Positions 8,538 to 64,000 of a stretch of 64,000 nt of DNA are shown here, in pieces (the first letter of the stretch is position 1; each line of letters begins with the position of its first letter). The stretch spans positions 121,768,001-121,832,000 of the forward strand of contig OZ024740.1 in assembly GCA_964016885.1 (NCBI GenBank). The letters are read 5' to 3'. Made by a program: the position numbers and the translations under genes. The stretch comes from Eledone cirrhosa (lineage: Eukaryota). Below the pieces are notes generated by a model that searched no databases, was not told the DNA's origin, and saw nothing but the letters and a program-made list of their open reading frames with translations.

Positions 8538-8539
8538 AA

Positions 8540-10650
<2,111 letters not shown>

Positions 10651-13489: not shown

Positions 13490-13685
13490 TATAACAAAGA
13501 ATGAGTGCCAAGATACTAGGTGGACTAAAACGTAACAGAGTACTCGATACTTAGGATAGTAGAGTGGATAATATGAAAAGAGTCAGGACCTACGAGTAGG
13601 CTCGGGGCGTTCGACAACTAGATCCGAACTCATCGGATCTAGCTCTCGAAATGGCCGGAGCTAAGCCCATCGGGGTCCTAACTCT

Positions 13686-13689
<4 letters not shown>
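13490..13689. mobile_element. Fold-back element family P, copy 1 (palindrome 13575-13689 with HHR 3' half)
   Basis: Homologous to 49678-49884, 53611-53780 and 57764-57881; hairpin, GAAA, stem III, ATC, GGGGTCC. Confidence 0.7.
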
Positions 13690-13751
<62 letters not shown>

Positions 13752-19690: not shown

Positions 19691-19691
19691 T

Positions 19692-24843: not shown

Positions 24844-24844
24844 C

Positions 24845-24892
<48 letters not shown>

Positions 24893-24978
24893 GTTATTGT
24901 TATTCCTTGAATCTCAGTCATTGATGTTGGTTAACTGGAAAGTCCGTTGGATTGAATATCAAGCCACTACCTGCAGCC

Positions 24979-27900
24979 TCAGATATTCAGGACGTATCGG
25001 AGGGTTCTTGCCGTTCCAAGCAAGCATGCCTTTTGAAGCGTTCCAAAAAGCGTGAAGGGGCCGATTTTCTTTAACCATCCCTGGAAACCTTTGGAGATAG
25101 TCCCCAGTGCGCCTATGACAATCGGGATCACTTTGACTTCATGGCAGTTCCAAATCCTTTTCACCTCCCACTTTAGGTCCTGGTATCGGTTAATTTTCTC
25201 CCTCTCCTTCTCTTGCACTCTCGTGTCGAACGGGCAGGCCACATCCACAATCAGGCACGATCTTTTTTCTTTGTCCACAACCACCAGGTCAGGTCTATTG
25301 TGTTCCAGTTTTTTGTCCGTCTGTATCCTAAAATCCCACAGCACCTTCACCTGACTGTACTCCATCACCGCCTCTGGCCTATGCTCATACCATTTCTCAG
25401 AATGTGGTAGATTGTTTACTTTGCACAGGTGCCAGTGGATCACCCTGCCCATCACATCGTGTCTCCAGCCCTTATAGTGGGTCTGGGCTAGGTGTTTACA
25501 CTCGGACACAATGTGAGCCACAGTCTCCTCTCTCTCTCCACAGATCCTGCACAGTGGGCTAGCCTCCTCCTTGTAGATATGGTGCTTCAACCACTTCGTT
25601 TTGAGGGCCTGCTCCTGCGCAGCCATTAGCATTCCTTCTGTAGCCTTTTTGAGGTCTCCTCTTCTCAACCAGTTCCATGTCTGTGGATCTCTAAATTCAG
25701 TTTTCTCAAAGAAGGTACTATGAAGGGATTTTCCCTTAAGGCTGCTCTTCCTCCTTGATGTTATTTCCTCCTTGGGTATCCCCTGGCCTACTGTCCCCTC
25801 CTTCAGTACAGCTCTGAGCATTGGCTCCTTACTATAGGTCACGTATTTGTATCGGTTGTTTTTCTCCATCTGAACACAGTCCTCTATGCTGATAAGACCT
25901 CTTCCACCCTCAGATCTCCTTAGGTAGAGTCTATCGACATCACTCCTCTTGTGGAACATGTTGTAGATAGTCAATAGCTTCCTAGTCTTCCTATCCATTT
26001 CTTTTTGTTCAGCAACATTCCATCTCAGGATTCCCGCACTGTACCTAATAATAGACACAGCTCGGGAATTTACTGCGCTTATGGCATTTCTGCTGTTCAG
26101 ATGTGACTTCAATACGCTCCTTACTCTCCGAATGTATTCAGTTCTTAACAATTCCTTCATTTTTTTGTTCTTTATGCCATCAGCCTCCAGAACGCCCAAA
26201 TACTTGTATCCTTCCTCAGAGTCAATTTCCTTTATCATCTCATCTGTTGGTATCTGGATCCCGTTACTTCTGCTCAACCTACCCCTCCTCATCACAATGA
26301 CTCCACATTTACCAATACCAAACTGCATACATATATCACTGCTGAAAATACGGACAGTGTCAACAAGCACATCCAACTCCTTCTCACTTTTCCCGAAGAG
26401 CTTAAGATCGTCCATGAAGAGGAGGTGATTGATGGTAAGCTCTCCTCTTCCCAACTTGTATCCTGCTCTCACTTTTCGCAGCATAATGGTCAAGGGCATC
26501 AGGGCAAGGACAAACAACAGAGGGGACAGGCTATCTCCCTGGAAGATACCTCTCTTGATCTTCACGCTTCCCAAGGATACTCCAGTTGATGTCAACTCTG
26601 TCTCCCAGGACCCCATACTCCTGCCCAGCAACTGTCTGATGTTATCTGCCACCCTGAAGATCTCCAGGCTTTTGGTGATCCAAGAATGAGGCACCATGTC
26701 AAATGCCTTTCTGTAGTCTATCCATCCCATGGCAAGATCAGTGTGTCTCCTCCTGCAATTCCCCATTACCATCTTATCAATAAGCAACTGGTCCTTTGTA
26801 CCACGTGACTTCTTTCGGCATCCTTTCTGTTCGTCCGGCAACAAGTTGTTTGTGTGGAGGTGATGGTAGATTTCCTCAGACACAATGCTCGTCAACAGTT
26901 TCCACATTACGGGCAGACATGTGATAGGTCTATAGTTGGTAACATCATTACCCTTGATTCGGTCTTTCATTATCAGAACTGTGGTACCTTTTGTCAACCA
27001 CTCTGGCACCTCACCCGACACCAAGCAGTCATTGAACATGGCCGTCAGCTTCGGGTGGAGGGATGTTAAATGTTTAATCCAATACCCCTGCACACCATCT
27101 GGGCCTGGTGATTTCCAGTTGGTTAGTTTTTTGGCTTGCCCCTTAAGAGTTTCAACTGTGATACTCAAATCAGTCTGTTGCTGTGCCTGCTCACCGATCT
27201 CCCTCTGTACTGTCTCAATCCACCCTGCCTGGGCATTGTGTCTAACATCCTGCTCCCATATTCCTCTCCAGAATGTTTTAGCTTGTTCCGCCCCAGGGAT
27301 CAAGTCGTTGCCTCTTTCTTTCCCCTCAACCTGTCCAAACAGCATCTTCTGGTTGTTGTCGAACATGCGGTTCTGTTTATACTGACTGACTCTGTTCTCG
27401 TATCGCCTGATTTTGGCACTCTTTGCTACAATGCGTTGCTTCAATTCCTCTATGATAATATTTAGCTTTTTACTCCTAGTTTTGTATTTTATTTCCAGTC
27501 TAATTTTAGTGCCTATGTTTTTTAGTGTCCCATTCAGTAGTGACTCAAGCTTTCCTATGTCATTTCTCATTTCCCCGATTTGCCCACTCATCGCTTCCTC
27601 CACCACGGCTCTGCTCTTTCTTGTCTGTTGTTTCCTCTCGCTTTTATACCAAGTAGTTTCCTCACCGTATTTGCTGTTGCTTTGAGGATATTGTTGCACT
27701 GGTGAAGACTCCTCGCCTCAAGGTATGGGATGACTTTGTTTACCTTAGCTGTTGTTTCTTTTAACTTTTTCCTGTCTACAAATCTTAGGTTCATAGGTCT
27801 CCCACTATCATTGTTCAACTCATCTACCACTAAATTTAGGATGTCAACCGAATCTTGTCCTAGCCCGTCAGCATTCATCTCCTCAGTGGCCGTATCTCTG

Positions 27901-28370
27901 TTCCAGGTATTATTTATCTCAGTATTCAGATCATTGTCTGCTTCGGGTTGTTCCTCCGTTCTCAGGACCTCCTCACCTTCATTTCCCGCCGGCTCGCTTG
28001 TCTGGCATACTACACCCGCCATCTCCAAGCCATTCTCTCTGCTCAGTTCCTCCAGTTCCAGCTCGCTTATCCACCCATTAGTTCTTATTACCCGAGCCTG
28101 CCCGGCCAATTTTTGTTCATCTAATTTAAATAAACCAATCTCGTTCCAGATGTTATGCATCCGTCTCCTGTAGCCCCTCTCCTTGGGGTTACTTTTCAGG
28201 TAGCATTGCATAACAGTTCTATTCAATTCTTTCGTCCAGTTGGTTCTGGCCCCTTTCCTTCTTCTTCTTCCTCCAACATCAGCAGTATTTGGTTGACAGT
28301 CAGGTTCTTGCTGCTGAGCCAGGGGGCACCTGTTGGGTGAGAGTCTGTCACATGACGTTCTAGTCTCCAT
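24979..28370 (-). CDS. Reverse transcriptase / zinc knuckle / restriction-like endonuclease polyprotein (frameshift near 27590)
   Basis: ORFs 27588-28370 and 24979-27699: WKSPGPDG, YRPITCL, GIFQGDSLSP, FMDDLK, CRIC..ETVAHIVSEC, RHD, NRPDLVV, DVACPFD, K..RYQDL. Confidence 0.93.
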
Positions 28371-28939
28371 TTCACCGTTATTCGAACTGTTTATGTTCGA
28401 TATTTAAACACTCTTATCGAGGATTGGCGAATGTATGTTTACATAGCCATCTGTGGATCCGCCATCCCACTTGGCCCTTGTGTGGCATTATCACCACGCT
28501 GTATACGGACACACATAAACAAACAAACACACGGGCAGAAAGGGCCCCAAAAATGAATAAGCATAAGTTTCATTGTAATGTAGTATTCGAATGTCTGACT
28601 TAGTTTTTGTTTTTTAAGTTTTACTTTTTCCCCCCTCTTCTCTGTCCGTCCGCCTGCTTCTCTCTTCATTCTTATTTTCTTTACGTTTTGGGGGTTTCTT
28701 TTTTTGTTTTTGTTTTTCTCTGTTTTTCTCGTTTTTTACTGTTGTTGCTGTGCTGCTTTTGTTGTTTGTTTTTTCTTTTTTCTTTTGAGTCTATCTATAT
28801 ATTTTGATGCCTTCCTCTTTGTTAGTAGTAGGAATTCTATAATGTGGAAGTGGTAGCCAGCAGAGACTGGCGGCGTTGGCGATACTGAGACAGTGGTGGT
28901 GGTGATGTCGGTACTGAGGCAGTGGTGGCGGTGATGCGA

Positions 28940-29882
28940 CCGTATTACTGTAGTGATGGTGCTGTAGCGGTGGCAGCAGCAGTGAAGGAGTCAGGGGGGG
29001 TGGTGGTGATGGGATAGTGGTGGTAATGATGGCCGTAGTGAGCGGTGGCGGTGAAGGTGAAAATGCTGTTGTGTTTAGTGTACACAGATGATGGGGTGGG
29101 TGGTGCATCTAGTTTCTGGTGTTGGTGAGTTTCGCTGTCCTATATAGTGTAGCCAGAGGAGAGGAGGGGGGGGGGTTCTTCTTCTTCCATTTATAGCCAT
29201 TTTATTTTTTTTTTGGATATACAGTGTACAATACAAAGTTGAATATTTGAATATTTGAGCCGTATTACTGTAGTGATGGTGCTGTAGCGGTGGCAGCAGC
29301 AGTGAAGGAGTCAAGGGGTGGTGGTGGTAATGATGGCCGTAGTGAGCGGTGGCGGTGAAGGTGAAAATGCTGTTGTGTTTAGTGTACACAGATGATGGGG
29401 TGGGTGGTGTATCTAGTTTCTGGTGTTGGTGAGTTTCGCTGTCCTATATAGTGTAGCCAGAGGAGAGGAGGGGGGGGGGGGTTCTTCTTCTTCCATTTAT
29501 AGCCATTTTATTTTTTTGGGATATACAGTGTACAATACAAAGTTGAATATTTGAATATTTGAGCCATATTACTGTAGTGATGGTGCTGTAGCGGTGGCAG
29601 CAGCAGTGAAGGAGTCAAGGGGTGGTGGCGGCGGTGATGGGATAGTGGTGGTAATGATGGTCGTAGTGAGCGGTGGCGGTGAAGGTGAAAATGCCGTTGT
29701 GTTTAGTGTACACAGATGATGGGGTGGGTGGTGTATCTAGTTTCTGGTGTTGGTGAGTTTAGCTGTCCTATATAGTTTAGCCAGAGGAGAGGAGGGGGGG
29801 GTTCTTCTTCTTCCATTTATAGCCACTTTTTTTTTGGATATACAGTGTACAATACAAAGTTGAATATTTGAATATTTGAGCC
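28940..29882. repeat. Three ~300-320-bp tandem units in the 5' UTR of the Dong copy
   Basis: CGTATTACTGTAGTGATGG...TTGAATATTTGAGC units start at ~28940, ~29260 and ~29564. Confidence 0.9.
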
Positions 29883-30044
29883 TTATAACAATATATTTTG
29901 GGTCCGAATTTTTTTTGGGCTCAAGCCGGGTGCTTTACGTAGCATTTGTACTAAGAGTTGTTATTTCACAAATGATTTAAATATGTTAAAAATTCAAAAC
30001 TTACGGGAGCGATTTCATGACCTCCGTCACCTCGTGCGTCTTCA

Positions 30045-37989: not shown

Positions 37990-40700
37990 ATAACCCTTCC
38001 GATATGTCCTTCGACCTACGACGAGTCCACGATACGACTTTCGCTTTTAACAAATGCACGTAATTGCCGTCGCAGGTCGATGAACAAACAGAAGAGGAAT
38101 TTAATATAGCTAGATCTAAACTTAGAAATATTATAGAACAGTATATCAAGAAGCAAAATAGAATGGAGGCCCAGCAACTGGGAGAATGAAATCTGCAAAT
38201 GGCTTGCGTAAGCTCATTCAGCGCTCACGTAATGGAGAGATTGCATGCTTTCCAAACAACAGACAAGTCTGGCAGAATGTTGGTTGACAGTCTGTAAAAC
38301 TACATCCAGGCAATGCAACCCCATATCACTAACACAAGAGAAGTAACACTACAAGAACATGAGGATAGGGAGAAAACACTCAACGCTCATATGATGATGT
38401 GGACAAACATAATGCAGCCCAATAAACGGACTGCCAACAACTTCCAGGCTTGGTACAATGACGTGCCAGTGTTGTATGGGCTTCGAAAAGACAATAAGAC
38501 GAACAGTGACCCAGTCACAGGACCACCAACACGGCCAGTGTGTGGAGCTAACATTGCTAGTAACTACAGACTTTCCTACTTCCTCTCCCTGATCGTACGC
38601 CCCATTATTGAAATGTCCCCGGATATATGTGACAGCACGGAGGACCTCCTCAGCAGAAATAACCGATCTAGGGACCTCACAGACTGTATAAAAGGTAGTA
38701 TGGATGTAGTGTCCCTATATCCATCCATTGACGGGAATTTTGAAGTGGAGAAATGCGTAGAAATGATTAGTGAGAGCAATGAATTCCGTGGGATTGATAC
38801 CAGTAAGCTGGGACTCCTACTTAAACTTACTTATAATAATGATTATCTAGATACGTATGACCTTAGCAACCTCTGCCCCACAAGGGCAGCAAGAGGCAGA
38901 CCATCTACCATTACCTCAATGGCCAAGAAAACCCACACAGAAAGATGGAACGGGTGAACGAGAGCCATACGGACCCCGAAAACCATGATGAACTAAAGAA
39001 AATGATTGCACATGCGGTGCGGTACAGTATAAAATTAACTCTTAAGTAACATATGTTCAAATTTAATGGAAAAACATATGCCCAAAAAGAGGGAGCAGCC
39101 ATTGGTGTTAGCATTGCAGGTGACATAGATAACCTATTCATGGTATGGCGGGACAATAAATTTAAAGAACAATTAGAAGACAGCAACCTCTTAACCCTGA
39201 TAATATACTCTCGCTACGTTGATGATATAAACATCGTAGTAAAAAGACGCCCACTAGAGAACAGTCAGGAATTAGAGAAAAACACCATGGAAAGCATCCA
39301 GAAAATAGCTAATCCATTACACGAGAGTATTAGAGTTACTATAGACTACCCAAGCAAACACCCCAACCATAGATTACCTGTACTAGACACAGAGCTCTGG
39401 TTAGAAACCATTGATAACAAAAAAACAAATGCTCCATTCCCATTATGCCAAACCCATGACTTCCAAATACCTGATCCACCGAATCTCACCTGTTTCAGAT
39501 CACACTAAAATCAACATACAGATTGCGGATTTAGTACGGGTGATGAGGAACGTGTTCCGCATGTGCAACCCCAAGGAACTAGAGAGACACATACAACACT
39601 TCATCCCCCGTATGCAGTTCTCTGGTTACAATCAGAGAGATAAAATAAGAGTATATAGTGGAGCCAGAACCAAATGGGAAAAAATGGTTAATAATGATAC
39701 AAATGGGACCTGCCCCTTGTGTAGGAGCAAATTTTGAAATAGAATAGAAAGAACTAGGAATAAGGTTAATAGAATAAACTCATTTTATGATAGCAATAAA
39801 TACCAGAGTGTAATGTTTACAACGCCTAGAGGTGAACTTGCTTACACATTTAGAAGGGCCCTACATAACCTTAAACTAAATATTAAGATAGTGGAAAGAC
39901 TAAGTACCTCCATAAAAACACATATTAGCAATACATACCCTTTTCAAAGACATCCCTGTATAGATAAGAAATGCATAATCTGTAAACTAAGTCCCCATAT
40001 TAACTTCAAAACAAGAAACATAGTATATAGCATAAGATGTACTGAGAGAAAATGTAAAGATAAGAATTTAGTGTACATAGGTAAAACAGCTCGTAGTATA
40101 GAATAACGATTAAATGAACACTGGCGAGAGCTTCAAGATAGAAAAAAATCATCAGTACTCCACCAACATGCTAAAATAGAACACAAGGGCAAATTAGAGA
40201 ACGTAGAAATAAAAATAAAATCTACACACAGAAAAGACGCAATGTTGGACAAATCACAGAGGCAATAAACATAAATGAACTCCAACCAACATTAAATAGA
40301 AAACATGAATGGAATAGCAACATCACAACTTACAATTAAGGACAAACATGAAAACAGACACACATAGAACAAACAACCAACTAGTAACATGTAAATAAAC
40401 AAACAAATAAACAAATACATAAACAAATAAAAACACACACAGACACCCGGATGTAACATATGCGCAAACTAAGCACACAACACACACAAAAATAAGATGG
40501 CGTAGGACAGAACAAAGGAGAGGCACAAAAAACAAAGAAATAATCCCCAGTCACTGAAGAGGTCACATATTGTGGGACGAAAGCACTTTGGCAATATATG
40601 AACAACCCTCCTGTTGTGCAACCAACCAACCAACCGACAATTTACAAATTTCTTAAATTTATAAATTTAATTTATAATAAATTGGAGTGAAGCATCTGGT
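37990..40700 (+). mobile_element. Degenerate Penelope-like element of a third family (Neptune/Nematis-like linker)
   Basis: GLRKDNK..PPTRPV, SMDVVSLYPSI, FKFNGKTYAQKEGAAIG, YSRYVDDI, LPVLD, C..KCIIC linker, NIVYSIRC..YIGKTAR. Confidence 0.88.
40550..40592 (+). ncRNA. Minimal type-I hammerhead in PLE 3' region
   Basis: GTCA-CTGAAGA-GGTCAC ATATT GTGGGAC-GAAA-GCAC-TT-TGGC; stem I GTCA/TGGC. Confidence 0.65.
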
Positions 40701-42438: not shown

Positions 42439-42547
42439 TCTCTATATATATATGGTATTGGGATCGGTGCTCTGAAGTAGCGATGTTTACATGAATGTAT
42501 GTATAGTATATATGGCAATATACCGTATGTTTACTTAAAATAAATTA

Positions 42548-42726
42548 GAAGACTATACGCTATCAGTTTTAATGTAGTGACTTACTTCTTTTCGGCAAAA
42601 GAAGGGAGATAAACTGACAGTCTGTTCACGCTGGTTGGCGTTCATCAGAGCCAGATACACCACTGGTTTCGCCGAAAATTATAGAAGGTGGATTCTTATA
42701 GAATTACAGTAATAATCAGGAAATGA

Positions 42727-42730
<4 letters not shown>
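42548..42730 (-). mobile_element. Fragment of retrozyme-like family R1 with HHR (42612-42652)
   Basis: Homologous to 54051-54245; minus strand GGCT-CTGATGA-ACGC CAACCA GCGT-GAA-CAGACT-GTC-AGTT (one core A missing). Confidence 0.75.
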
Positions 42731-42814
<84 letters not shown>

Positions 42815-42921
42815 GTTAAAATACTGGAGTATGTTGGAGTTAAACACCCTCCTCGTATTATAGAAATGACAGTAAAAGGTATAGCTCAATGTAGTTAAAC
42901 AGAGCCGAAAAATTATTTTAA

Positions 42922-44101
42922 TTTTTTTAATTTCCGGTTGATTCTATTTATTTATTTTATTTTATATTTTATATTTTATATTTTATTTGTAATACTACTG
43001 TGCATTATATTTACTGTCTGGCACTTACTCACTCATCCATATACATGTCTGTCTACCAACCTTGTAATTATAAGTAATTATATATTATATTATAGTATAT
43101 TAATTTATTTTATATAATATATTATATTATATTGTATTTTTTATTGTAATATTGATCCTTATTACTTACCGTTAATTGTATGTAACATTATGATATGTTA
43201 AACTTTATATATCATGTAAGATGTTTGGACTTTTGTACCATCAACATTTTTTTGAGGTATTGTACAATTTATTTTTCCTCACCTACTCTGTAACCCAGTA
43301 TGAATTGATTTGTTAACTTGAGTACCTTTATATTGTTTATTATAAATGTTAGTATATTGTATATTGTAAATGTTAATATATTATTATTATATTATTATTG
43401 TGACATCTATATTGTTTGTGTAAATTAACCGGAGATTATCTATCCTATTATATTGTATTATATAGTATATAACTGTATTATTTATTATTTATTATATGTG
43501 CTACTTATAATTATATCATATTATTACCTCATGTATATTGGGTAGACGTATTAGTAATATTATTATTATTATTTTCATTCCTATCATGCTTATTTTTATA
43601 TTCAAACTCTTAATACGGTTTAATTTGTGCAGTTGAAGATGGATGTGTATATTGTTGTATGTGTATGTGTGTGTACGTGTGTGCATATATATACATATGC
43701 ATATTGTACCTTTTGATTTTTATTGTAATTTTAATGTTGGTAAAGGTATATTATATTATATTATATTATATTATATTACATTGTATTATATATAATTCCT
43801 GCTATATATAACCACCTTTGTTTAGCTCTAGTTTTTTTTGCTTTGGACTATATTTGTAATATGGTTCTTAATGTTATATACATCCTTAGTAATTTTTATT
43901 ATATATTTTTATTATTTTTATTATACATTTTTGCAATACTTTAGTGTATGTACACTCCATATTCTTCGGAGCTTCCGGCTGTATCTGCCGATATTACTTC
44001 TTGTTGTTTTAATTGCCCTGATGAGTCCTTAATAGGACGAAACATTGTCGGCTAATAAAGACTTTTGATGTATTGAAGGCTTCTTTGTTTTACTCTCTTA
44101 A
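42922..44101 (+). repeat. 5' pseudo-LTR
   Basis: Near-identical to 47688-48858. Confidence 0.95.
44015..44052 (+). ncRNA. Minimal type-I hammerhead ribozyme (canonical core)
   Basis: GCC-CTGATGA-GTCCT TAAT AGGAC-GAAAC-ATT-GTC-GGC, followed by TAATAAA. Confidence 0.93.
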
Positions 44102-44277
44102 TTTTTCGGCTCTGTTTAACTACATTGAGCTATACCTTTTAATGTCATTTCTATAATACGAGGAGGGTGTTTAACTCCAACACACTCCAGTATTTTAACC
44201 CTTGTCACTGCTCCCGATCGGTTGAGCTTCCTCATATATACTGGTATTTTGGCCTTTATATATATACATCTGACAGT

Positions 44278-46963
44278 ATGCTAACAAATAGTTACCTGCC
44301 TTTATCGCTGAAGAATATCCCCACCCCTCTAAGAATACTTACGAAAAACTATTGATAGCTAGTGTTAACTCCTTTGTAAAAAGGATTAGATGGCGTGCTT
44401 TCCACTATGATAATAATAAGAATAGGAAGGACCCCAGGAATAGAACTATTTTTAATAACTACGGCTTCAAAACTTATAAGAGCCCACCACACAATATTCT
44501 GTTAGATAGTTTTGAAAGTGACTTACTCTCTCTTGTCAAAAATATTAGGTATAGGCCAAATAATAGACATAGAAATTATAATAATTTTGATAAGTTCCAG
44601 TCTAGACTTAAAAATATTGTTAAGGGTTTCGGTGAGAATAAGTCCATTCTTGTCCCGGCAGATAAGACTAGGAATCTATACTCCATGGATTATAGTGCTT
44701 ACCGCGACTTTATTTTTAAGGAGCTGCATAGAAACTATAAAAAAACCTACGCTTGAGAATTTGAACCACATCAATAGTGATGGCCTTAGAATTGTCTCTG
44801 ACCTCGGCCTCGATAAGTATACCCAGCCATATTACCCTCGAGAACCGAGATTCACTCTTAAGGATTATAAGGTTGATTTTATTAGTAACCCCTCTGTTAG
44901 ACTCATCTGTCCTTCTAAGTCTGATATAGCCATTATCAGTAAAAAAATCCTTGACCTTATTATACCAGATGTTAGGGATAAGGTTAATTTTAACCTATGG
45001 GGGAACACTAAGGAAGTTATAGATTGGTTCTCCGGGATTAATAGACTTGAATCTAATAATTTATCCAATTCGATATTGATGCCTACTACACATCAATTTC
45101 ACCCATCCTCCTCAATAAAGCTTTAATGTTGGCCATGAGAGTATCCGGCCTTACACGATCACAGGTAGAGATTATACTAGCAGCCCGTAAAACTATTATT
45201 AAATTTGAGGACACATTTTGGACCCGTAAAAACACGCCCAATAATTTCGACGTTACAATGGGTTCGAGTGATTCGGCCCAGGTTACTGATCTTGTTGGGT
45301 TGTTCCTCCTTAATGAACTATATGCTACCTTCCCGCACCTTATAGGCGGACTATATCGTGATGATGCATTGTTTGTAATTAACTCTAGCACCAACAATGT
45401 AGAACATAATAAGAAGAAGCTTTATAAGTTTTTTAAAAGCTATAACCTTTCGATCACGATAGATAGAAATGATAGAGCGGTTAACTTTTTAGATGTGACT
45501 TTGGACTTGGTCACTAATAGTTTTAAACCCTTCCATAAGCCTAATGAAATACTTTCTTATGTTAGTCCCAATTCTAACCACCCCAAGTCTATGATAAGCT
45601 CTATAATTAAGGGTGTATCTAATAGGATTTCCACACTCTCTAAGGACGTAGGAACATTTAATGAACATGCGGAGTACTATAATAATGCCCTAGCAAATTC
45701 AGGTTACTCTAATAAAATACAATATAATAATAGTAACCTTAGAAAGTCTCCGTCTACTTTTAATAATAATAACATAATATCACATAACATGGCCATGAAT
45801 GGGAGTAGCAAACATAGTAACCGTAAAAATTATATAGGTGTATCTGAAACCATCCATAAGTCAAACCACCGGACTCGTAATAGTGAATATAATACCTCTA
45901 GGAAACAAGTTGAACCCCCTGAGCGCTCACACATTGGTGATAATTTTGCTGGATCTTATTCTAATAATATTGCTCCTACTGATCCTATCATTGGCCCTAA
46001 TCCTTATGATGGGATTCCGGACAGCAGCAGATCTACTGGAGGTGGAAACTGTAATAGACAATGAAATTTTGGCTGATTCTATAAATGTGGCTTTAACTAA
46101 TCCTTGTAGTAACCCTAGTCTCGATGGTGGGATATTTGATAATGGTAGAGTCGGTAAGAATAAAAATAGAAGGCGATTAAATACTTATTTTAACCCGCCA
46201 TATAATCAGGAAGTATCAACTAATATCCCTAGGTCTTTCTTCTCTATCTTAGAGAAAAATGTCCCCCCTTCTCATAAATGCCATAGTATTTTTAATAAAA
46301 ATGTTATTAAACTTTCATTCTCTACCACCCCTAATATTAGTTCTCATTTAGCTAGCACTAACAATAGGAAAATTAGGGATGGATTCTCCTCTCTACATAC
46401 TACTAGTCTGAACAGATCTGGCAATGCATTACCACCAGAACAGTCCTTAACTAATAGCAATCCTACGTGTAATGCATCACCACTTGAGTCAACCAATAAC
46501 ACCCGGAAGTGCAATTGTAGAGTGAGATTCCTAACTTCCCTTTAAACGGTAACTGCCTTTCTAAGAACATTGTCTATGCTTGCGAAGTTATAACTAATTC
46601 CTCTAATAGAACTCATATAGGCTCTACATCTAACACTTTTAAGACTAGGTTTAACTCTCATATCTCTAATTTCAAGCATGTTAAGTTTAAGAATTCTACT
46701 TCTTTAGCACATTATAGCTGGGATCTTAAGGGAGCTAATATACCATATAGCCTTAACTGGCGTTTAGTAGCACGCTCTAATCACCTTTCTACACATACTA
46801 AGTTTTGTAATCTCTGTATCCTCGAATCACACTCTATAATCTTCTCTAGCGCATCTTTACTTAATAGAAAGTCTGAGATATTCTCTTCTTGCCCCCATGC
46901 TATTTCTAATTCATACTTTTATTATAAACCTAAACGTTCTAGTAGTACAAATTGTACCCATTA
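44278..46963 (+). pseudogene. PLE RT-GIY-YIG ORF with several frameshifts
   Basis: SLKNIP, RIRWRAF, ADKTRN, VRLICP, FDVTMGS, GLYRDD, NFLDVT, SNHP, YFNPPY, CNC, IVY..HIGST..FKTRF, CNLC, LNRKSE. Confidence 0.92.
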
Positions 46964-47687
46964 GCTGGTATATTCCATTATTTATTTTTTAGTTTAGGTT
47001 CTTTTGTTTGCCAACGTTATTATTATCATCATTATTATCATTGGTTTTTGATGACTCTTTATTCTAACTCTCATAATCTTTTGGCTACTGTACCATATCT
47101 ATCTTCTTATGCATTAAATTTTCACTATTACACCTTATGAATGTATATAAGATTATATATTTTACGCTATTTATTTTATTTTATTCTTATTTTTATTTTT
47201 TTTTATTCGGATTCTTCTTTGGAACCCGCCCCCCCCCCCCATGCGCACATAAACTTAGTGTCAACCCCTCCAAGTTGACTATGATTATATTATATTTAAC
47301 CGCCCCTCCTTTACGCTCCTTTCTATTATGTAATATAGTATATCGACTATATTTTATGCCCCTTTGCATCCTCCATATATTTCTCCATTTCTGTCCCTAT
47401 TAGCCTACCTTAATTCTGCTTAAGTCAGTTCTTTAGATATCGTTATGTATATGATAATAAAAAATGTTCATTCCTTTTTGTAAAGATTTGTAACGAAATA
47501 TTAAGGTTTATAAACTTTAATGACTTAAACTATAGCTAATATTATACTGCCTTATTGAATAGTTTAAATATTTTTAATATTAATTTATCAAATGGGGTTT
47601 TTGAGTCATTTACAGGGGTTGTTTCCTTAGTTTTTACTTAACTACTTAACTGCATGTGAGACCTAAATGTATACGTTTGTTTTTGTT

Positions 47688-48854
47688 TTTTTTAATTTCC
47701 GGTTGATTCTATTTATTTACTTTATTCTATATTTTATATTTTATATTTTATTTGTAATACTACTGTGCATTATATTTACTGTCTGGCACTTACTCACTCA
47801 TCCATATACATGTCTGTCTACCAACCTTGTAATTATAAGTAATTATATATTATATTATATTAATTTATTTTATATAATATATTATATTATATTGTATTTT
47901 TTATTGTAATATTGATCCTTATTACTTACCGTTAATTATATGTAACATTATGATATGTTAAACTTTATATATCATGTAAGATGTTTGAACTTTTGTACCA
48001 TCAACATTTTTTTGAGGTATTGTACAATTTATTTTTCCTCACCTACTCTGTAACCCAGTATGAATTGATTTGTTAACTTGAGTACCTTTATATTGTTTAT
48101 TATAAATGTTAGTATATTGTATATTGTAAATGTTAATATATTATTATTATATTATTATTGTGACATCTATATTGTTTGTGTAAATTAACCGGAGATTATC
48201 TATCCTATTATATTGTATTATATAGTATATAACTGTATTATTTATTATTTATTATATGTGCTACTTATAATTATATCATATTATTACCTCATGTATATTG
48301 GGTAGACGTATTAGTAATATTATTATTATTATTTTCATTCCTATCATGCTTATTTGTATATTCACACTCTTAATAAGGTTTAATTTGTGCAGTTGAAGAT
48401 GGATGTGTGTATTGTTGTATGTGTATGTGTGTGTACGTGTGCGCACATATATACATATGCATATTGTACCTTTTGATTTTTATTGTAATTTTAATGTTGG
48501 TAAAGTTATATTATATTATATTATATTATATTACATTGTATTATATATAATTCCTGCTATATATAACCACCTTTGTTTAGCTCTAGGTTTTGTTTGCTTT
48601 GGACTATATTTGTAATATGGTTCTTAATGTTATATACATCCTTAGTAATTTTTATTATATATTTTTATTATTTTTATTATACATTTTTGCAATACTTTAG
48701 TGTATGGACACTCCATATTCTTCGGAGCTTCCGGCTTGTATCTGCCGATATTACTTCTTGTTGTTTTAATTGCCCTGATGAGTCCTTAATAGGACGAAAC
48801 ATTGTCGGCTAATAAAGACTTTTGATGTATTGAAGGCTCCTTTGTTTTACTCTC

Positions 48855-48858
<4 letters not shown>
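47688..48858 (+). repeat. 3' pseudo-LTR
   Basis: Near-identical to 42922-44101; abuts (TA)n. Confidence 0.95.
48772..48809 (+). ncRNA. Minimal type-I hammerhead ribozyme (canonical core)
   Basis: Identical to 44015-44052. Confidence 0.93.
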
Positions 48859-48900
<42 letters not shown>

Positions 48901-48906
<6 letters not shown>

Positions 48907-49650
48907 GCGAGAAGAAACATTTAGATATAATTAGTAATAAGATGTATCATACCTAAACTGCTTCTAGATTCCTCGACTACGTAGTTTCGTGGCATAATCA
49001 AAAACAATACATCATAGAGATATAGAGCTTTTGTGAGGTATGCCGACTTATCAAGAGGATACCTCATTTTACTAGCTTCAAAGAGCACGTCTATAAGATG
49101 TGAGATAGAATCCCAAAAGGCGGAGGGGGAGTCAATCACGTGATACGACGGTCAAGAAACAGAGCTAAGCCCCTTATAACCCCGAAAAAAATACCACGGA
49201 GGCGGAGGGGGTATTTATATCGAGGCCGCAGAAGAGGTGGTTAAGGAGGCAAGAAGTATGAGTAATGGCAGCTTTCCAGCAGTCACTACACTTCAAGGAT
49301 TACTCGACAAGGGGGAGTTATAAACAATATATTGAGAAACACACAGATACATGCGGACACATACATATACATGAATATATCCACATCCATCCTTGAAACT
49401 ACGTAGTCGAGGAATCTAGAAGCAGTTTAGGTATGATACATCTTATTACTAATTATATCTAAATGTTTCTTCTCTCTTCATAATGTACTTATAGCTCTGG
49501 TTCAGTCTAATCCATTCGGATTGGTTTGTCCCAGTTATTCATAGAGCAACATCGGTTAAGGTTGGCACCATTAACTCAAGGATGGATGTGGATATTTTCA
49601 TGTATATGTATGTGTCCGCATGTATCTGTGTGTTTCTCAATATATTGTAT
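48901..49650. mobile_element. Retrozyme-like family R2: head-to-head, circularly permuted arms
   Basis: 48901-48988 is the reverse complement of 49395-49482; ~49318-49396 is the reverse complement of ~49576-49652; (TA)n on both sides. Confidence 0.8.
48970..49059 (-). ncRNA. Type-I hammerhead, U3-A8 core variant, long stem II
   Basis: Minus strand: TCCTC-TTGATAA-GTCGGCATA...TATGCCAC-GAAAC-TACGTA-GTC-GAGGA. Confidence 0.8.
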
Positions 49651-49677
49651 ATATATATATATATATAGATAGATATA

Positions 49678-49879
49678 TAACGAAGGAAATGTGGTAACGA
49701 ACCAGGTGGACCATAACGCACCAAAGTACTCAATACTTGGGGTAGTAGAGTGGGTAATAGGAACGAGTAGGACCCCGACGGCTGAGCTCAAGCCGTCTCG
49801 ACGGCTAATTATGGACTAAATTTAGTCCAGAATTAGCTGTCGAAACGGCTAGAGCTCAGCCGTCGGGGTCCTACTCGTT

Positions 49880-49884
<5 letters not shown>
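49678..49884. mobile_element. Fold-back element family P, copy 2 (near-perfect ~127-bp palindrome 49757-49884)
   Basis: Arms are reverse-complementary about ~49820; GAAAC-GGCT AGAGCTC AGCC-GTC-GGGG at 49842-49868. Confidence 0.85.
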
Positions 49885-53610: not shown

Positions 53611-53614
<4 letters not shown>

Positions 53615-53777
53615 AGAAAGTATGACCCGACGGTAGAAATAGTACTGAAAGAGTCGTCGAAACGGCTTCAGCTCTACTGACGGGGTCATACTTTCTCCTA
53701 TTACCTACTCTACTACCCTAAGTATTGAGTACTCTGGTGCGTTATGGTCCATCTGGTTCCTTACCACAAATCCTCCG

Positions 53778-53780
<3 letters not shown>
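53611..53780 (+). mobile_element. Fold-back element family P, copy 3
   Basis: Inverted arms 53611-53637 / 53673-53700; GTCGAAACGGCT; tail homologous to the reverse complement of 49678-49757. Confidence 0.75.
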
Positions 53781-53978: not shown

Positions 53979-54121
53979 AAACAACATAAACATTTTTAAA
54001 AAGACTGTAGTTGCATTTTCGATTTCACCTTTTTTCTTTATAATATATATGAAGACCTTACGCTATTGTTTTAAAGTAGTGACTATGTCACTTACTTCTT
54101 TTGTCAGCAAACAAAGGGAGA

Positions 54122-54169
54122 TAAGCTGACAGATCTCTGTTTGGTACTGTTGGTACTCCTCAGAGCTTA
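54122..54169 (-). ncRNA. Type-I hammerhead (G12->C)
   Basis: TAAGCT-CTGAGGA-GTAC CAACA GTAC-CAAAC-AGAGATCT-GTC-AGCTTA. Confidence 0.75.
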
Positions 54170-54528
54170 CCACCCCTTTTTCCTGCTGAATATTATTGAA
54201 TGTTGGATTCTTTTAGAATTCCAGTAATAATCAGGAACTGATTATAGAGAGCGGTGCCGGTCAAGCAAACATTGAACATTAGAATTGGTGCTTTGAAAAA
54301 GCCATATATATATATGAATGTATATATATAGTGTATTTTGCAATAGACTGTATGCTTAATTAAAAGTATTTTGAAGACTTTAAGTAAGCATACAGGGTAT
54401 TGCAAAATACACTATATACTCTGTATAATCAGTTAATCGGCAACCGCTCTGTATAATCAGTTCCTGATTATTACTGGAATTATATAAGAATCCAACATTC
54501 ATAATTTTCAGCATGCAGAGGGAGTGGC

Positions 54529-54574
54529 AAGCTCTGAGGAGTACCAACAGTACCAAACTGAGAGATGTCAGCTT
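54529..54574 (+). ncRNA. Type-I hammerhead (G12->C)
   Basis: AAGCT-CTGAGGA-GTAC CAACA GTAC-CAAAC-TGAGAGAT-GTC-AGCTT. Confidence 0.72.
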
Positions 54575-54811
54575 ATCTCCCTTTGTGTACGGAAAAAAGA
54601 AGTAAGTGACATAGTCACTATTTTTAACATAATAGCGTAAGGTCTTCAAAATGCTTTTAATTAAGCATACTGTGTATTGCAAAATAGACTATATATACAT
54701 TCATATATATATATATCGCTATTTCAGCGCCCCAATTCTAATATATATATATATATGTATATACATATATATAAATATATACGTGTGTCTGGTTTTGTGT
54801 GTGTGAATATA

Positions 54812-54895: not shown

Positions 54896-55939
54896 ATATC
54901 ATGCACTCATCTGTCCATCTCGACGTATGAGTGTCTAGTTGCTTTACCTAAGTCAGTTAGTGGTAGTCCGACCCGACGAGGATGTGTCAACAAATATGTC
55001 GCCAAAGTCTTTCAAAAAAGGGTACATGTGATACAACAGTGTAGGCTTTGAGAGAGTTTAATTGGAAATAGAGCAAATGCGTTTGTCATCAATCATGCCT
55101 CTTCAAAATGCTGAAGTCAACTACATTCAAACACCTTAATGGTACCATAACAACTCGTTTTTCCCTTTTCTCTGTCCAGACTACTCGATCTAATATATTC
55201 ATGTGTGTATCTACAAACTGTATGAAAGCATCCCTTCTGGAACACATTTAGCTGATATCATTGTGTACCATATGGAGTCCAGAATCCACAACCATACATA
55301 TATAATAAATGCATGTTGGTTAATGATTAGGGTGTCTATTCATGGAACAGATGGAGCGTTGTGTTCTTAAGTAAAACACTTCATTTACATATTGCTGTAG
55401 TCCAGTCAGCTGAAAATGAGAAACAGCAGTAGCTGTGCTTTTGTCCTGCGATCAACTGGCCTCCTGTTAAGGAGATAGTGATGAAATTAATGCCTATGAA
55501 TGTGAGTTAAACACCGGAGTGGTGACTGTCTTGGCTTGGATCTAGCTTTCATCTATTTTCTTCTCCACAAACACGAATATATGAATGTATTTTTGAATAT
55601 ATGAATGTATATATATGAATATATGAAGTTAAATCGTGTGAAACCATAGCCGGACTAGAAGCTGATGAGTGTATAAAAATGTTTGTATGATATTCTGGCG
55701 TTCATTGTCTTCCTTTTCCTCTTTCTTCCTATCACTTCTGTAGACAAAAACACATCTGGCCGCTTAATTCTGTTCTTTCAGGTATAATTTACCCAACACT
55801 CTCCCTGACGACATTTTGCTCTTTTAAGAGCTTCATTGTGATTAGTGCATCTCATTATTCTACGAATTCCAATACACTCGCGCTTCAAACTCAATATCTC
55901 GATATACGGTATAACTTGTATACATACATACATACATAC

Positions 55940-56292
55940 ATGGTGGCTCCCAACTCGTTTTCAAGTACGGACACTACTTTATATCCATGTAGGAGAACCC
56001 CCAAAGATGCACTGAACGAGTGTGACTTTTTAGTCCAGCCAGAGCAAACTCACTGCACAAAGCCAGTCCCACTCTCTTAACCAAGATGATATTTACGAAA
56101 AAGAATAACAAGTCAACATCATTGGATACCATCAGAGTTGCAGGTGTTATATCAGAGTTTTCCTTCTCCTAGAATTATGCCTTGACAAAGGCTAAGGGAT
56201 CATCTCTGATATATATATATATATATACACATATATACATACATATATACATACACATATATATATATATACATACACATATACATACATAT

Positions 56293-56347
<55 letters not shown>

Positions 56348-57685
56348 CATATATACATACATATATACATACATATATATATATATATATGGTGGCTGCC
56401 AACTCGTTTTCGAGTACGGCCACTACTTTATATCCATGTAGGAGAACCCCCACCGATGCGCTGAACGAGTGTGACTTTTTAGTCCAGCCAGCGACTTGAA
56501 AACTCTGGTACAAACACTACACCTGTGACAATTATTGACACATAGTGCTGGGCCCATGGTACCATGTGACGACAAGTGCAGAGATCTCCAGATATAAAGC
56601 AATGCCTGTGCCGTGAAGCTTTTATAGTGAGCAAAGGCACTGCACAAAGCCAGTCCCACTCTCTTAACCAAGATGATATTTACCAAAAAGAAGAACAAGT
56701 CAACATCATTGGATACCATCAGGGTTGCAGGTGTTATATCAGAGTTTTCCTTCTCCTAGAATTCTGCCTTGACAAAGGCTAAGGGGTCATCTCTCCCGGT
56801 GATTTTGGATGGCCATTGACTATTAAGAGCTCATTTTCCCTTTGACAGGTTTTGTTTTTAGTCCTGCAGGATGTCCAAAGTCACCCTCCTCACCAAGAAA
56901 CCTCGGTGGGGTTGCCAGTTTAGTCGCCAACGACCCGACCATGGGACAGGTTGTACTGAGATACATGTTACCAGTAGCACCAATTGGTAACCTGACATAC
57001 ATACATACATACATACACACATGCATACATACATACATACATACATACATACATACATACATACATACATACATACATACATGGTGGTGGCTGCCAACTC
57101 GTTTTCGAGTATGGCCACTACTTTATATCCATGTAGGAAAACCCCTACCGATGCGCTGAACGGGTGTGACATTTTAGTCCAGCCAGCGACTTGAAAACTC
57201 TGGTACAAACTCTACACTTGTGACAATTATTGACACATAGTGCTGGTACCATGTGACGACAAGTGCAGAGAGATCTCCAGAAATAAATCAATGCCTGTGC
57301 CGTGAAGCTTTTATAGTGATCAAAGGCACTGCACAAAGCCAGTCCCACTCTCTTAACCAAGATGATATTTACCAAAAAGATGAACAAGTCAACATCATTG
57401 GATACCATCAGGGTTGCAGGTGTTATATCAGAGTTTTCCTTCTCCTAGAATTCTGCCTTGACAAAGGCTAAGGGATCATCTCTCCCGGTGATTTTGGATG
57501 GCTATTGACTCTTAAGAGCCCCTTTGCCTTTTGACAGGTTTTGTTTTTAGTCCTGCATGATGTCTAAAACCACCCTCCTCACCAAGATACCTTGAGGGGT
57601 TGCCGGTTTAGTCGCCAACGACCCGACTATGAGACAGGTTGTACTGGGATACATGTTACCAGTAGCACCAACTGGTGACCTGACA
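55940..57685 (-). mobile_element. Tandem array of three short internally deleted RTE-like elements with (ATGT)n tails
   Basis: Units ~55940-56207 (partial), 56389-56995 and 57081-57685; C2H2 remnant [22 protein letters not shown] typical of RTE/BovB C-termini; separated by (CATA)n. Confidence 0.7.
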
Positions 57686-57763
57686 TATATACATACATAC
57701 ATACATACATACATACATACATACATACATACATGAAGAAAGCATGCACGGTAGTGGAAATTA

Positions 57764-57881
57764 GAAAAAGTATGACCCGACGGCAGAGCTCAAGCCGTTT
57801 CGACGGCTATTTCTGGACTTAAATAGTCCAGAATTAGCCGTCGAAACGGCTTGAGCTCTGTCGTCGGGGTCATACTTTTTC
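57764..57881. mobile_element. Fold-back element family P, copy 4 (palindrome)
   Basis: Arms reverse-complementary about ~57821; GAAAC-GGCT TGAGCTC TGTC-GTC-GGGG at 57843-57869. Confidence 0.82.
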
Positions 57882-58061: not shown

Positions 58062-58270
58062 ATAGTCAAAGAGTGAAGAATAACAAGGTCGGCTGTACAA
58101 AAAGGGTTTTATTTATAGTATTAACAATTTGTTTAATGATCATGTCGAGTGACGCAACTTCGAGTGATTAGCGTGTTTTAGACTCATCTGATCAATGAAA
58201 CAATTGTTAATACTATAAATAAAACCCTTTTTGTACAGCTGACCATGTTATTCTTCACTCTTTCACTACT
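58062..58270. repeat. Imperfect ~205-bp palindrome with HHR-3'-half-like motif
   Basis: Arms 58062-58142 / 58189-58268; right arm GAAAC-AATT-GTT, then AATAAA. Confidence 0.75.
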
Positions 58271-58296
58271 CTATATGTATATATATATATATATAT

Positions 58297-59485
58297 ATTT
58301 ATTAAAATAACAGATTAAAGTTTAAGCAAAGAATAGCTGCTTTCACCCTTAACGGGATCTTCTGAAACTAACAAAGTCAATCTGTAAACGCAGAACTGGA
58401 TATTTCAAAAAACGTTGCAACCGGAGGAAGACAGGAAGACGATACTTTGGTTCGTGGAAACGTTCCCTGGCAAAGAACGGGAAAAAACGAATATAATACG
58501 CCATTAATAGGAGCGGTGAAAAACAATTATGCGCAAAGACAGAACCACGTTTATGGTATAAAAGAGGTCGTAGACTAATGTTCTCTTAGGTGGTTCATAG
58601 AGACGTTCTCTGGCAATGAACGAAAAAAACGAAGATAATACTTCATATGAGGAGCGTGGAGAACAATTGCACGCAAAAGCAAAACCACGTAAATGGTATA
58701 ACTGAAGTCGTAGACTAAAATTCTAACTAGGAGACCGAATGAATCTCCGCTTCAGAGTGAAGAACAAAGTAAATAAATACAATACAGAGGTAACAGAAAT
58801 TAAATAAATACATACACGCATAAAAATACGTACATACACAAGCATACGTGGAAACACTTACCATAGGTATACAAAACCACGCACATATAAATATGTGTGT
58901 GTGTGTATGCATGTATACAAATACATAAATAATTAAATAAACGTATATAAATACATAAATACGTATATATCAAGCGCACACACATGCCTACATGTAACTA
59001 CACAAATGTTCGGAAACGTAAGTCAACCAAAACATGAAGTACACATACACACACCCTACATACGTACGAACCTGCATACTCACACAGACGCAAAACACCC
59101 GTATACACATAACCAAACCATATGTACCAGAAAATATAAAATTATACGCCATAACATATACAATCAAATATACGTACGAGAAGGTATACGTACCTTCACA
59201 AAACATACAGGTAATATATACTTACATATGCAAATAACTAATGGTATAAACAAAACATATACTTAGCTACCACATCAAGACGTAAAATATCCACGTATAG
59301 ATCGTACTATCCGTTAGGGTATAAAGTGGGGCTGTAACACAGGAAAGTTTTGTGCAATTTATGTTTACAAGCCGAAATTACCTGAGATTTTTTGTTTAAG
59401 ATGTGGTCTGTGGCGTAGAGTATTTCCAGGGCCTCACGGCGCAGGGGAGACATGGTCTTTTATATCCGTTATACGATCTAGCCCT

Positions 59486-59486
<1 letters not shown>
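58297..59486 (-). mobile_element. PLE 3' fragment (GIY-YIG end plus pLTR), same family as 5527-7410
   Basis: Colinear with 5527-6707; (TA)n at both ends. Confidence 0.92.
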
Positions 59487-59561
<75 letters not shown>

Positions 59562-59583
59562 CTCTCTACATGACTGAATACAA

Positions 59584-59788
59584 TAAATTTAATCTGAGTT
59601 TTTCGAATAGTAATGATAATATTCGATTCATTTGCAATTATGCAAACACGCCTCAATCTTAAAGCCATGTCAGTAGAATGAGTCCCGCATTCTTGTTGTC
59701 GTGTTGGCATAAGAATGAGGCCTGTTTGCATAATTGCAAACAATTCGAATATTATTATTAATGTTCGAAAAACTCAGATTAAATTTAT
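59584..59788. repeat. Imperfect ~205-bp palindrome between (TA)n tracts
   Basis: ATAAATTTAATCTGAGTTTTTCGAA... / ...TTCGAAAAACTCAGATTAAATTTAT, with internal hairpins in each arm. Confidence 0.85.
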
Positions 59789-59800: not shown

Positions 59801-60480
59801 ATACAAATAAAATATAGAGTTATTAACTCATATAGATACCCTGCAATTAACAAGCTCAAAGTGTAAATACTGAGCATTATAATATTAATATGTGTAGAAG
59901 TAAACACAGTAAACCCTTGTCTAAAATTACGAGGGTAGATTACACCACAAATGTTATATATCATTCAACCTGAATCATATGGGATGTTACAAGATTTCTT
60001 ACAAGATTTCTCATACATACCATATCAATAACCATTTCATCTCCCGTATCTATATGAGTTAATCACTCAATATTTTATTTGTATTTCGGCTCCTTATCTG
60101 TTGAGCTTATAAACATGAGTGTAAATAGGCTATTATGTCTAGCATAATCACTCGCACCGCATATAACTTTCAACGCACGAGGTGTAAACTTTAGTGAGTT
60201 TATTGTTATAGGTGTTATGTAACATTTAGTCTTATCTCCTGCTGACGAAATGCCTACGTATTACTTGTTACAAACACGATTCATTCAGGGCGAAACAGAT
60301 TAAATCTTTAGTTGACCGGGAGATGAATTGGTTATTGATATGTATGTATGAGAAATCTTGTAAGAAATCTTGTAACATCCCATATGATTCAGGTTGAACG
60401 ATATATAACATTTGTGGTGTAATCTACCCTCGTAATTTTAGACACGTCTTTACTGTGTTTACTTCTACACATATTAATAT

Positions 60481-60482
<2 letters not shown>
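59801..60482. mobile_element. Retrozyme-like family R3: head-to-head, circularly permuted arms
   Basis: 59879-60046 is the reverse complement of 60317-60482; 59801-59839 is the reverse complement of 60046-60084; HHR-like motif at 60234-60324. Confidence 0.78.
60234..60324 (+). ncRNA. Degenerate type-I hammerhead
   Basis: Stem I ATCTCCTG/CGGGAGAT, CTGACGA, GCC..GGC stem II, GAAAC; stem III and cleavage triplet irregular. Confidence 0.5.
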
Positions 60483-63496: not shown

Positions 63497-63582
63497 ATAT
63501 TAATAAATTTGAAGACTAAAATCCAAAGAGGGCTCGATAAGGATAAATATATATCAAATATATAAGAACCGTAGAGCAAATA

Positions 63583-64000
63583 TTTATTAAAATAACAGAT
63601 TAAAGTTTAAGCAAAGAATCGCTGCTTTCACCCTTAACGGGAACTTCTGAAACTAACAAAGTCAATCTGTCAACGCAGAAATGGATATTTCAAAAAACGT
63701 TGCAACCGGAGGGAAGACAGGAAGATGATACTTTGGTTCGTGGAAACGTTCGCTATGCAAATAAGTAATGGTATAACAAACATACTTAGCTCCCACATCA
63801 AGACGTAAAATATCCACGTATAAATCGTACTTATCCGTTAGGGTATAACGTGGGGCTGTAATACAGGAAAGTTTTTGTGCAAGTTATGTTTACAAGCCAA
63901 AATTGCCTGAGATATTTTGTTGAAGATGTGGTCTGTGGCGTAGAGGATTTCCAGGGCCGCAGCGGCGCAGAGGTCACATGTTCTTTTATTTCCGTTATAC
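63583..64000 (-). mobile_element. PLE 3' fragment with internally deleted pLTR, runs off window
   Basis: Matches 5527-5697, then jumps to ~6448-6696 of the first copy. Confidence 0.9.

Follow-up and report, generated by a model that had tools for sequence, protein, structure and literature searches.

Insertions of Penelope-like elements (PLEs) are described as carrying an inverted, 5'-truncated copy of the element, a tail of 30-40 bp at one end and a bias towards (TA)n targets (PMC8557442, PMC3846280), and the origin of both the inverted 5' copies and the tails is treated as still undefined in the relevant part of PMC8557442. Self-priming at the palindromes of PLE junctions was proposed in 2013 (PMC3846280), and pairs of hammerhead ribozymes on opposite strands of such elements were noted in 2014 (PMC4209133). 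For a PLE of the anole, whose protein is a predicted dimer, in vitro work describes nicking and extension of both target strands and reverse transcription that starts at two sites, the distance between which equals the tail (PMC11167929). According to the same account, ribozyme cleavage is not needed and a template starting just inside the 3' half of the ribozyme is accepted, and the minimal template needs sequence beyond the start sites (PMC11167929).

The window analysed here (the whole stretch of DNA under study, 64 kb in length) holds four copies of a short repeat, family P, the unit of which runs (TA)n, tail, palindrome and (TA)n or (CA)n over ~205 bp. It resembles the Pen2 and Pen3 insertions of Adineta vaga, in which an inverted and a direct terminal repeat stand head-to-head with a tail at one end (PMC3846280; scheme in PMC8557442), and in which the junction palindrome has been read as the outcome of self-priming and the target is AT-rich or (TA)n (PMC3846280). 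Against insertions of this type, as that paper presents them, family P is without an ORF, totals 205 bp and has a tail of 77 bp. Furthermore, both of its copies are cut at one and the same point, a stem II-like tip, so that the 5' half of the ribozyme is replaced by a mirrored 3' half, and the palindrome is far more abundant than its non-palindromic form (compare PMC3846280). The arms are also reminiscent of the minimal type I hammerheads of metazoan PLEs in having C-GAAA-C, GUC, the 3' strand of helix I and, in the loop of helix III, a palindromic element, and those hammerheads, too, come in opposite-strand pairs, theirs 100-700 bp apart (PMC4209133). However, in comparison with what is set out there, the family P palindromes lack CUGANGA, their halves are fused at helix II, and helix III is of 6 bp as opposed to the usual 1-2 bp (PMC4209133).

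With the non-LTR retrozymes family P shares its short length, lack of coding capacity, probable origin from PLE terminal repeats and presumable movement in trans (bioRxiv 10.64898/2026.07.22.740005; PMC7229834). Yet retrozymes, as the first of these sources portrays them, are head-to-tail tandems with a whole hammerhead per unit, whereas family P is dispersed and head-to-head, with no whole hammerhead in the window copies (bioRxiv 10.64898/2026.07.22.740005). The octopus Naiad PLEs labeled 'HHR_half_core' show the same preference for (TA)n and, close to their 3' end, a hairpin-GAAAC-hairpin junction that no canonical core precedes, but in the supplement that lists them eight family P motifs had no relevant match, and the three consensus ends compared by eye did not match either (PMC8557442 supplement). 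Our search of the open-access literature turned up no account of an abundant palindrome composed of two 3' halves of a hammerhead. Inverted copies, tails and self-priming at junction palindromes are already in print; neither a link with stem II of the ribozyme nor a predominance of palindromic copies was met with in that literature.

The window is animal DNA in which retroelements abound, and the neighborhood of family P offers its own standard of comparison in the form of further PLEs. A decayed full-length element (42811..48859, plus strand) is composed of (TA)n, an inverted piece of 105 bp with the tail, a pLTR (42916-44102, hammerhead at 44012-44056), RT and C-terminal GIY-YIG remnants, a second pLTR (47681-48859, hammerhead at 48769-48813) and (TA)n. 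The inverted piece extends ~101 bp past the end of the direct repeat, and this extension constitutes the tail. Its hammerhead scored 31.7 bits under the Rfam model Hammerhead_1 (E 6e-4), somewhat short of the gathering score, which is 34, and its RT and GIY-YIG motifs were read directly from the sequence, Pfam having named none of six PLE fragments of the window and the relatives having given weak RVT_1 and GIY-YIG matches in two of seven cases. For one RT fragment, every relative with a named source comes from an octopod (at least 5 proteins, in a listing of 120 out of 165 matches), which makes an octopod the likely host. Two non-coding mini-PLEs accompany it. The first (48905..49653, minus strand; unit ~590 bp, tail ~171 bp) has a U3-A8 covariant hammerhead core with a long stem II, and it is in the (TA)n at its end that copy 2 of family P sits; the second (59801..60482, plus strand; unit ~480 bp, tail 79 bp) has a hammerhead-like motif at 60242. 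The full PLE, both mini-PLEs and family P have the same layout, with pyrimidine-rich bases before the (TA)n, and from this shared sequence organization family P appears to be the PLE insertion plan at its smallest, namely an inverted copy with a tail followed by a direct copy without one.

Where the inverted copies begin differs among these neighbors. In the first mini-PLE the inverted copy starts exactly at GAAAC (48988), and in the second at the predicted cut site (60317); in contrast, that of the full PLE starts 50 bases behind the cut site (44099), and that of an element at 54050-54648 starts ~96 bases in front of the core. Thus, two of the four other hammerhead-bearing inverted elements break at a ribozyme landmark and two do not. 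In this small, post hoc sample ribozyme landmarks account for some PLE inversion junctions, not all, which is as far as one can follow the proposal, made from the sequence alone, that the palindromes are a clue to PLE inversions; self-priming as such had, moreover, already been put forward (PMC3846280).

Several other repeats of the window deserve record. The regions 54050-54742 and 42443-42730 belong to a family with whole hammerhead-like motifs on opposite strands ~380 bp apart, in which CAAAC or GAAC replaces GAAAC. At 59561-59788, between flanks of (TA)n, lies an imperfect palindrome that contains nested hairpins and has an arm of 22 bp on one side; it may represent a second such family. 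At 58063-58268 there is a palindrome of ~205 bp, the arms of which carry GAAAC-AATT-GTT around a non-palindromic center, a possible mirrored hammerhead 3' half. PLE sequence, a GIY-YIG remnant and inverted repeats of 1.1 kb occupy 5502-8540, 58272-59486 and 63580-64000, where a simple core scan found no hammerhead. A hammerhead-like motif at 40554-40600 lies behind RT-like fragments (38298-39508). On the minus strand, 17116-29900 contains tandem non-LTR retroelements with RT and C-terminal restriction-like nuclease motifs, one of which retains an open frame of 912 aa; we take these to be R4/Dong-like.

The four diverged palindromes of family P had been pointed out by the sequence-only reading, and all of them bear out as such (~13574-13690, 49757-49884, 53611-53700 and 57764-57881). 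Their folding energies, in the order of copies 1 to 4, are -60.5, -115.1, -46.2 and -103.8 kcal/mol, with z-scores against shuffles of -7.8, -21.3, -7.4 and -19.5, and in no case was any of 200 shuffles as low. A profile search built from the four brought up no fifth copy within the 64-kb window. In copy 2 the tail-bearing arm, the inverted copy (49757..49820, minus strand), consists of the stem II 3' strand, GAGAC, stem III, GTC and the stem I 3' strand, and the tail-less arm, the direct copy (49821..49884, plus strand), has its short end near 49881, passing into (TA)n. The center of symmetry (49813..49828), the axis of which falls between 49820 and 49821, corresponds to an apical hairpin in the non-palindromic form described below. 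Copy 1 (13574..13690) is decayed, has another center, of the GATCCGA type, and ends in (CA)n. Copy 3 (53611..53700) is of opposite orientation, has GAC at the site and is an incomplete palindrome, ~38 bp being absent from the loop outward in its tail-less arm. Copy 4 (57764..57881) retains GAAAC and GTC in both arms, and its right end lies in (TA)n. In all four the identity between arms is higher within than between copies: 60/64 within copy 2, as against 52-54 with copy 4; 55/62 within copy 4; 25/28 within copy 3, as against 21-23/28 between copies; and 43/57 within copy 1, as against at most 40/59. The observation that variants are mirrored between arms thus stands, although the independent fold-back events once read into it are not thereby proven, since any model that builds both arms from one template, or indeed a set of MITE subfamilies, mirrors variants too.

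While the palindromes exist, they are not the whole unit for which they had been taken: that reading passed over both the incompleteness of copy 3 and a one-sided arm, or tail, of 77-79 bp that lies outside the palindrome and is common to copies 1, 2 and 3. In copy 2 the tail measures 77 bp (49680..49756, minus strand, the presumed sense strand of the PLE end) and its outer end adjoins (TA)n; in copy 1, a diverged subfamily, it is of 79 bp (13493..13571, minus strand); in copy 3 it is again of 77 bp (53702..53778, plus strand), followed by (TA)n. The tails of copies 2 and 3 agree at 69/77 positions and both agree with copy 1 at 57-58/79. Copy 4 has lost its tail, a possible remnant of which is seen at ~57742-57763. 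Directly in front of it, at 55920-57734, lies a tandem repeat of ~700 bp with (TACA)n spacers, which probably removed or replaced the tail. A tRNA-SINE reading of the tail was rejected, as the B-box-like word in copy 2 depends on a private base (49698).

The ends of the unit are informative as to its class. All seven preserved ends adjoin a microsatellite, whereas 3.6% of window positions lie that near to one; any target-site duplication would be masked by the microsatellite. MITEs of DNA transposons are short, non-coding, high-copy elements with a long hairpin and TA flanks. In contrast to these, the hairpin of family P covers one end of the element, and the ends are not inverted repeats of each other: the left end differs from the reverse complement of the right end, so that terminal inverted repeats, the finding that was to speak against a retroelement origin, are absent from the unit, and a MITE bounded by them is not at hand. 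Instead, as in PLE insertions, an inverted 5'-truncated copy lies beside a direct copy with the 3' ends outward; the tail is at one end in three of the four copies; and the window copies have an AT-rich or (TA)n target, with which the read ends agree. By the features compared, family P is neither a hammerhead, nor a retrozyme, nor a MITE, and its structure is that of a PLE end insertion.

The ribozyme likeness of the arms is best preserved in copies 2 and 4. GAAAC, GGCT..GAGCTC..AGCC, GTC and GGGGTC follow one another in copy 2 (49842-49869) and in copy 4, as had been proposed. The right arms of both read, more fully, stem, C, GAAAC, GGCT..GAGCTC..(A/T)GCC or a decayed form of it, GTC and GGGGTC (in copy 2, on the plus strand, GAAAC at 49842-49846, stem III at 49845-49863 and GTC at 49862-49864). 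The proposed decay of the site in copy 3, to GAC, is likewise there, but the left arm of copy 2 departs from the scheme in having GAGAC instead of GAAAC. The combination of C11.1-GAAA, stem III, NUH triplet and stem I 3' strand is found in both arms of copy 4 and in the right arms of copies 1 and 2, and is decayed in copy 3. Where the 5' side of the core should be, the description of a mirrored 3' half was correct: CTGANGA, TTGANAA and GTGANCA occur in none of the four window copies on either strand by direct motif search, on which we rely here, a type I descriptor scan having missed two hammerheads scored by Rfam. Rfam itself gave no hammerhead at the four copies, its matches there being sub-threshold ones to miRNA hairpins. 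Taken alone, the half-ribozyme motif is weak evidence: it was defined post hoc, has nine matches in the window as against 5.4 in 30 shuffles, and turns up in 0.7-1.6% of 20,000 shuffled arms. Stems II and III, moreover, have the same base (AGCCGT twice), a repeat that a working ribozyme would not need. The pair AT..AT of copy 1, which had been held to be compensatory, fails on inspection, as it is present in one arm while the other retains ACG..CGT. CpG-type transitions are the commonest change among family reads (G>A at 31 places and C>T at 24 in the read set X16), and both changes of the pair are of this type and are therefore no evidence of covariation. Judged by its sequence, the family P palindrome cannot fold as a hammerhead in cis, and self-cleavage would not be expected of it.

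To gauge the family beyond the window, three data sets of organism A (X1, X4 and X16) and one of organism B (X5) were aligned to 49679-49884 at 80% likeness; X1 may derive from the source of the window itself, and X5 was the one set aligned out of X5-X15, all of which had low word shares. On the unit fell 15,827 of 17,142,217 contigs in X1, 434 of 762,587 contigs in X4, 23,844 of 12,467,656 reads in X16 and three of 3,257,293 contigs in X5. Four copies per 64 kb together with 0.19% of reduced-representation reads make a copy number of tens of thousands or more likely, as a rough inference, read depth not being a copy number. The tail is the best-covered part of the unit in X1 and X4. In X4 it is ~6x deeper than the arms, as against ~1.5x in X1, for which library type or hairpin drop-out is a possible reason. 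A pile of molecule ends in X16 at 49810, 49819 and 49822 was discarded as a signal, for it falls on AATT, likely the restriction site of the library. Elsewhere the family pattern drew blanks: three scans of viral contigs gave zero, zero and one match, the last a chance occurrence inside a phage-like coding region; metagenome contigs gave zero and 27 pattern matches, all 27 without similarity beyond the pattern; and prokaryote genomes gave none. Accordingly, these scans found no family member in the viral, metagenome and prokaryote collections, and neither there nor in the window was an RT gene linked to family P, or an autonomous partner of it, found.

What happens at the boundaries of the unit can be followed in the 20 loose ends listed out of 493 and the 15 joints listed out of 81. 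Loose ends past the short end and past the tail end are (TA)n, and those at 49757 and 49872 likewise enter (TA)n. The center is of two types, one shared by copies 2-4 and the other found in copy 1, the latter also present among the loose ends listed from reads and contigs. Contig depth drops to ~1% at the palindrome center, and in the joints listed the tail arm breaks off at numerous points from 49717 to 49790 and continues in an arm starting at 49819-49834. The joints and the variability of the center fit imprecise joining; artifacts in the assembly of palindromes, or later hairpin-driven deletion (compare copy 3), can give similar depth and joints.

A check for non-palindromic copies, which the sequence-only reading had called for, was rewarded, in that a form with its own stem II 5' strand and apical hairpin exists. 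In the rows listed, other sequence stands in front of 49819-49820 in 28 contigs of X1, one of X4 and two of the three of X5, this front sequence measuring 34 letters at the median in X1 and 73-129 letters in X4 and X5. Record 18 of X5 reads center, GAAAC, stem III, GTC and directly into the tail, and its 129 front letters match the unit nowhere, so that there is no mirrored arm in it. Of the front sequence 30 letters are listed. The strand with which they open is complementary to the stem II 3' strand, forming 8 of 9-10 pairs when set against copy 2, and the 7-mer with which they close pairs at 6-7 of 7 positions with the first bases of the right arm. From these pairings the non-palindromic form would have a long interrupted stem II capped by an apical hairpin, resembling the long stem II of the neighboring mini-PLE, and it is at that hairpin that the palindromes turn round. 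The listed part of its sequence reaches no further than the base of stem II, just short of the position of CUGANGA, and the parent may have had a true hammerhead or a half-core look-alike as in the octopus Naiad. Within the window a pattern search for the non-palindromic motif gave zero matches. Separately, sequences with the center type of copy 1 have a heterogeneous, non-mirrored front before 49834 in 214 contigs of X1, 16 of X4 and 1,566 reads of X16 among the rows listed; these are either single-arm copies or a second non-palindromic master.

Taken together, we think it probable that family P represents the last ~140 bases of a PLE, that is, the hammerhead-like 3' half and the 77-bp tail, inserted as two head-to-head copies through the joining of two cDNAs where stem II has its tip. 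Both strands of a (TA)n tract would be nicked by a PLE protein supplied in trans; one cDNA would be primed at the tail end and the other 77 bases further in, at the two start sites that make PLE tails; each would extend through stem III, through GAAAC and along the stem II 3' strand as far as the apical hairpin, where it would stop; and once they are joined at the stem II tip, each would replace the CUGANGA side of the other. With both arms copied from the sequence of one arm, variants would come to be mirrored within a copy. Such a course of events would account for the fixed position of both ends, for the single tail, for a turning point that is constant in place but varies in detail, and for the mirrored variants. 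Several findings tell against it: CUGANGA was seen in none of the forms, the scans brought up no linked RT gene or autonomous partner, the half motif is weak taken alone, the base of stem II repeats that of stem III, and the tail, at 77 bp, is longer than the 30-40 bp in print, although other PLE-like elements of the window have tails of ~101 and 171 bp.

As to the template, the chances are about even between a rare non-palindromic master and a palindromic copy, of which the tail-bearing arm would be used: that non-palindromic copies are so rare speaks for self-propagation from palindromic ones, while the sequence beyond the start sites that the anole template needs is lacking in palindromic copies and argues against it. 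It is a tentative suggestion, which we would hold somewhat short of an even chance, that family P propagates itself as a 'retro-MITE', a non-autonomous PLE of palindromic form with no need of an intact ribozyme. In that event the tail-bearing arm would template both cDNAs, each round would rebuild the palindrome and make the arms identical, and the element would have come to outnumber its parent by orders of magnitude, seeding the genome with perfect hairpins of ~60 bp.

The joining of two cDNAs has to be weighed against the idea, close to that of the sequence-only reading, that a single cDNA primed at the tail of the same PLE folds back at the tip of stem II and serves as its own template, after which either cutting by an endonuclease or the resolution of an intermediate fixes the short end. 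The apical hairpin of 6-7 bp that the non-palindromic form has at the fold-back point suits this, and there is precedent in the cDNA snap-back reported for R2 insertions (PMC11371274), in the attribution of PLE tails to endonuclease resolution (PMC8557442) and in the self-priming proposed for junction palindromes (PMC3846280), so far as these sources treat the matter. Yet an extra step is needed to obtain one fixed short end, for the ends at 49757 and 49872 both enter (TA)n; snap-back on the apical hairpin would leave a loop of 5-7 bases where the center of copy 2 has none; and copies 2 and 4 each have one arm mismatch at a site polymorphic in the family (49851; 49808/49833), which weakly favors two templates. 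Of the stalling at stem II and snap-back first envisaged, the origin from a retroelement is upheld, as is the position of the fold-back point within a hairpin resembling stem II, but snap-back by itself leaves the fixed short end opposite the tailed one unexplained, and we regard it as unlikely.

A departure from retroelements altogether, which we consider quite improbable, would make family P a non-autonomous DNA element that ends in a hairpin (MITE-like or of a rolling-circle/hairpin type), that targets (TA)n and has come by its ribozyme likeness by chance through nested hairpins with GAA/TTC loops. Very high copy number and fixed ends are what such an element would show, three hairpins share one common base stem, and the frequency of the half motif in shuffled arms (0.7-1.6%) and the want of an intact core in the four window copies can be read in the same way. 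Nevertheless, the unit ends that are not inverted repeats, the one-sided tail, the non-palindromic sense-strand form in two organisms and the same layout in neighboring hammerhead-bearing PLEs all tell against it. Finally, the halves might be kept as trans-cleavage substrates of a separate CUGANGA-bearing RNA, for which one may cite that GAAAC and GTC have survived in copy 4, in each of its arms, and in a single arm of copy 2. This alternative, likewise raised from the sequence alone, gains no support from the analysis and strikes us as scarcely credible: the half is locked in a perfect hairpin of 60 bp (-115 kcal/mol), copies 1 and 3 have a decayed site, a partner strand was not seen, and there is no signal of selection beyond CpG decay.

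If family P is of PLE origin, as we favor, it has implications beyond its own locus. With a unit of 205 bp, many thousands of copies, two fixed starts and one fixed turn, it is both a data set and a minimal substrate for separating two-primer joining from cDNA snap-back, and it allows one to ask whether ribozyme stem II acts as a stop signal. It also means that hairpin repeats with TA flanks, where genomes of this sort have them listed under MITE-like or unknown, can be the ends of retroelements, and that scans for hammerheads miss palindromes of this origin. If transcribed, such a multitude of near-perfect hairpins could feed double-stranded-RNA pathways.
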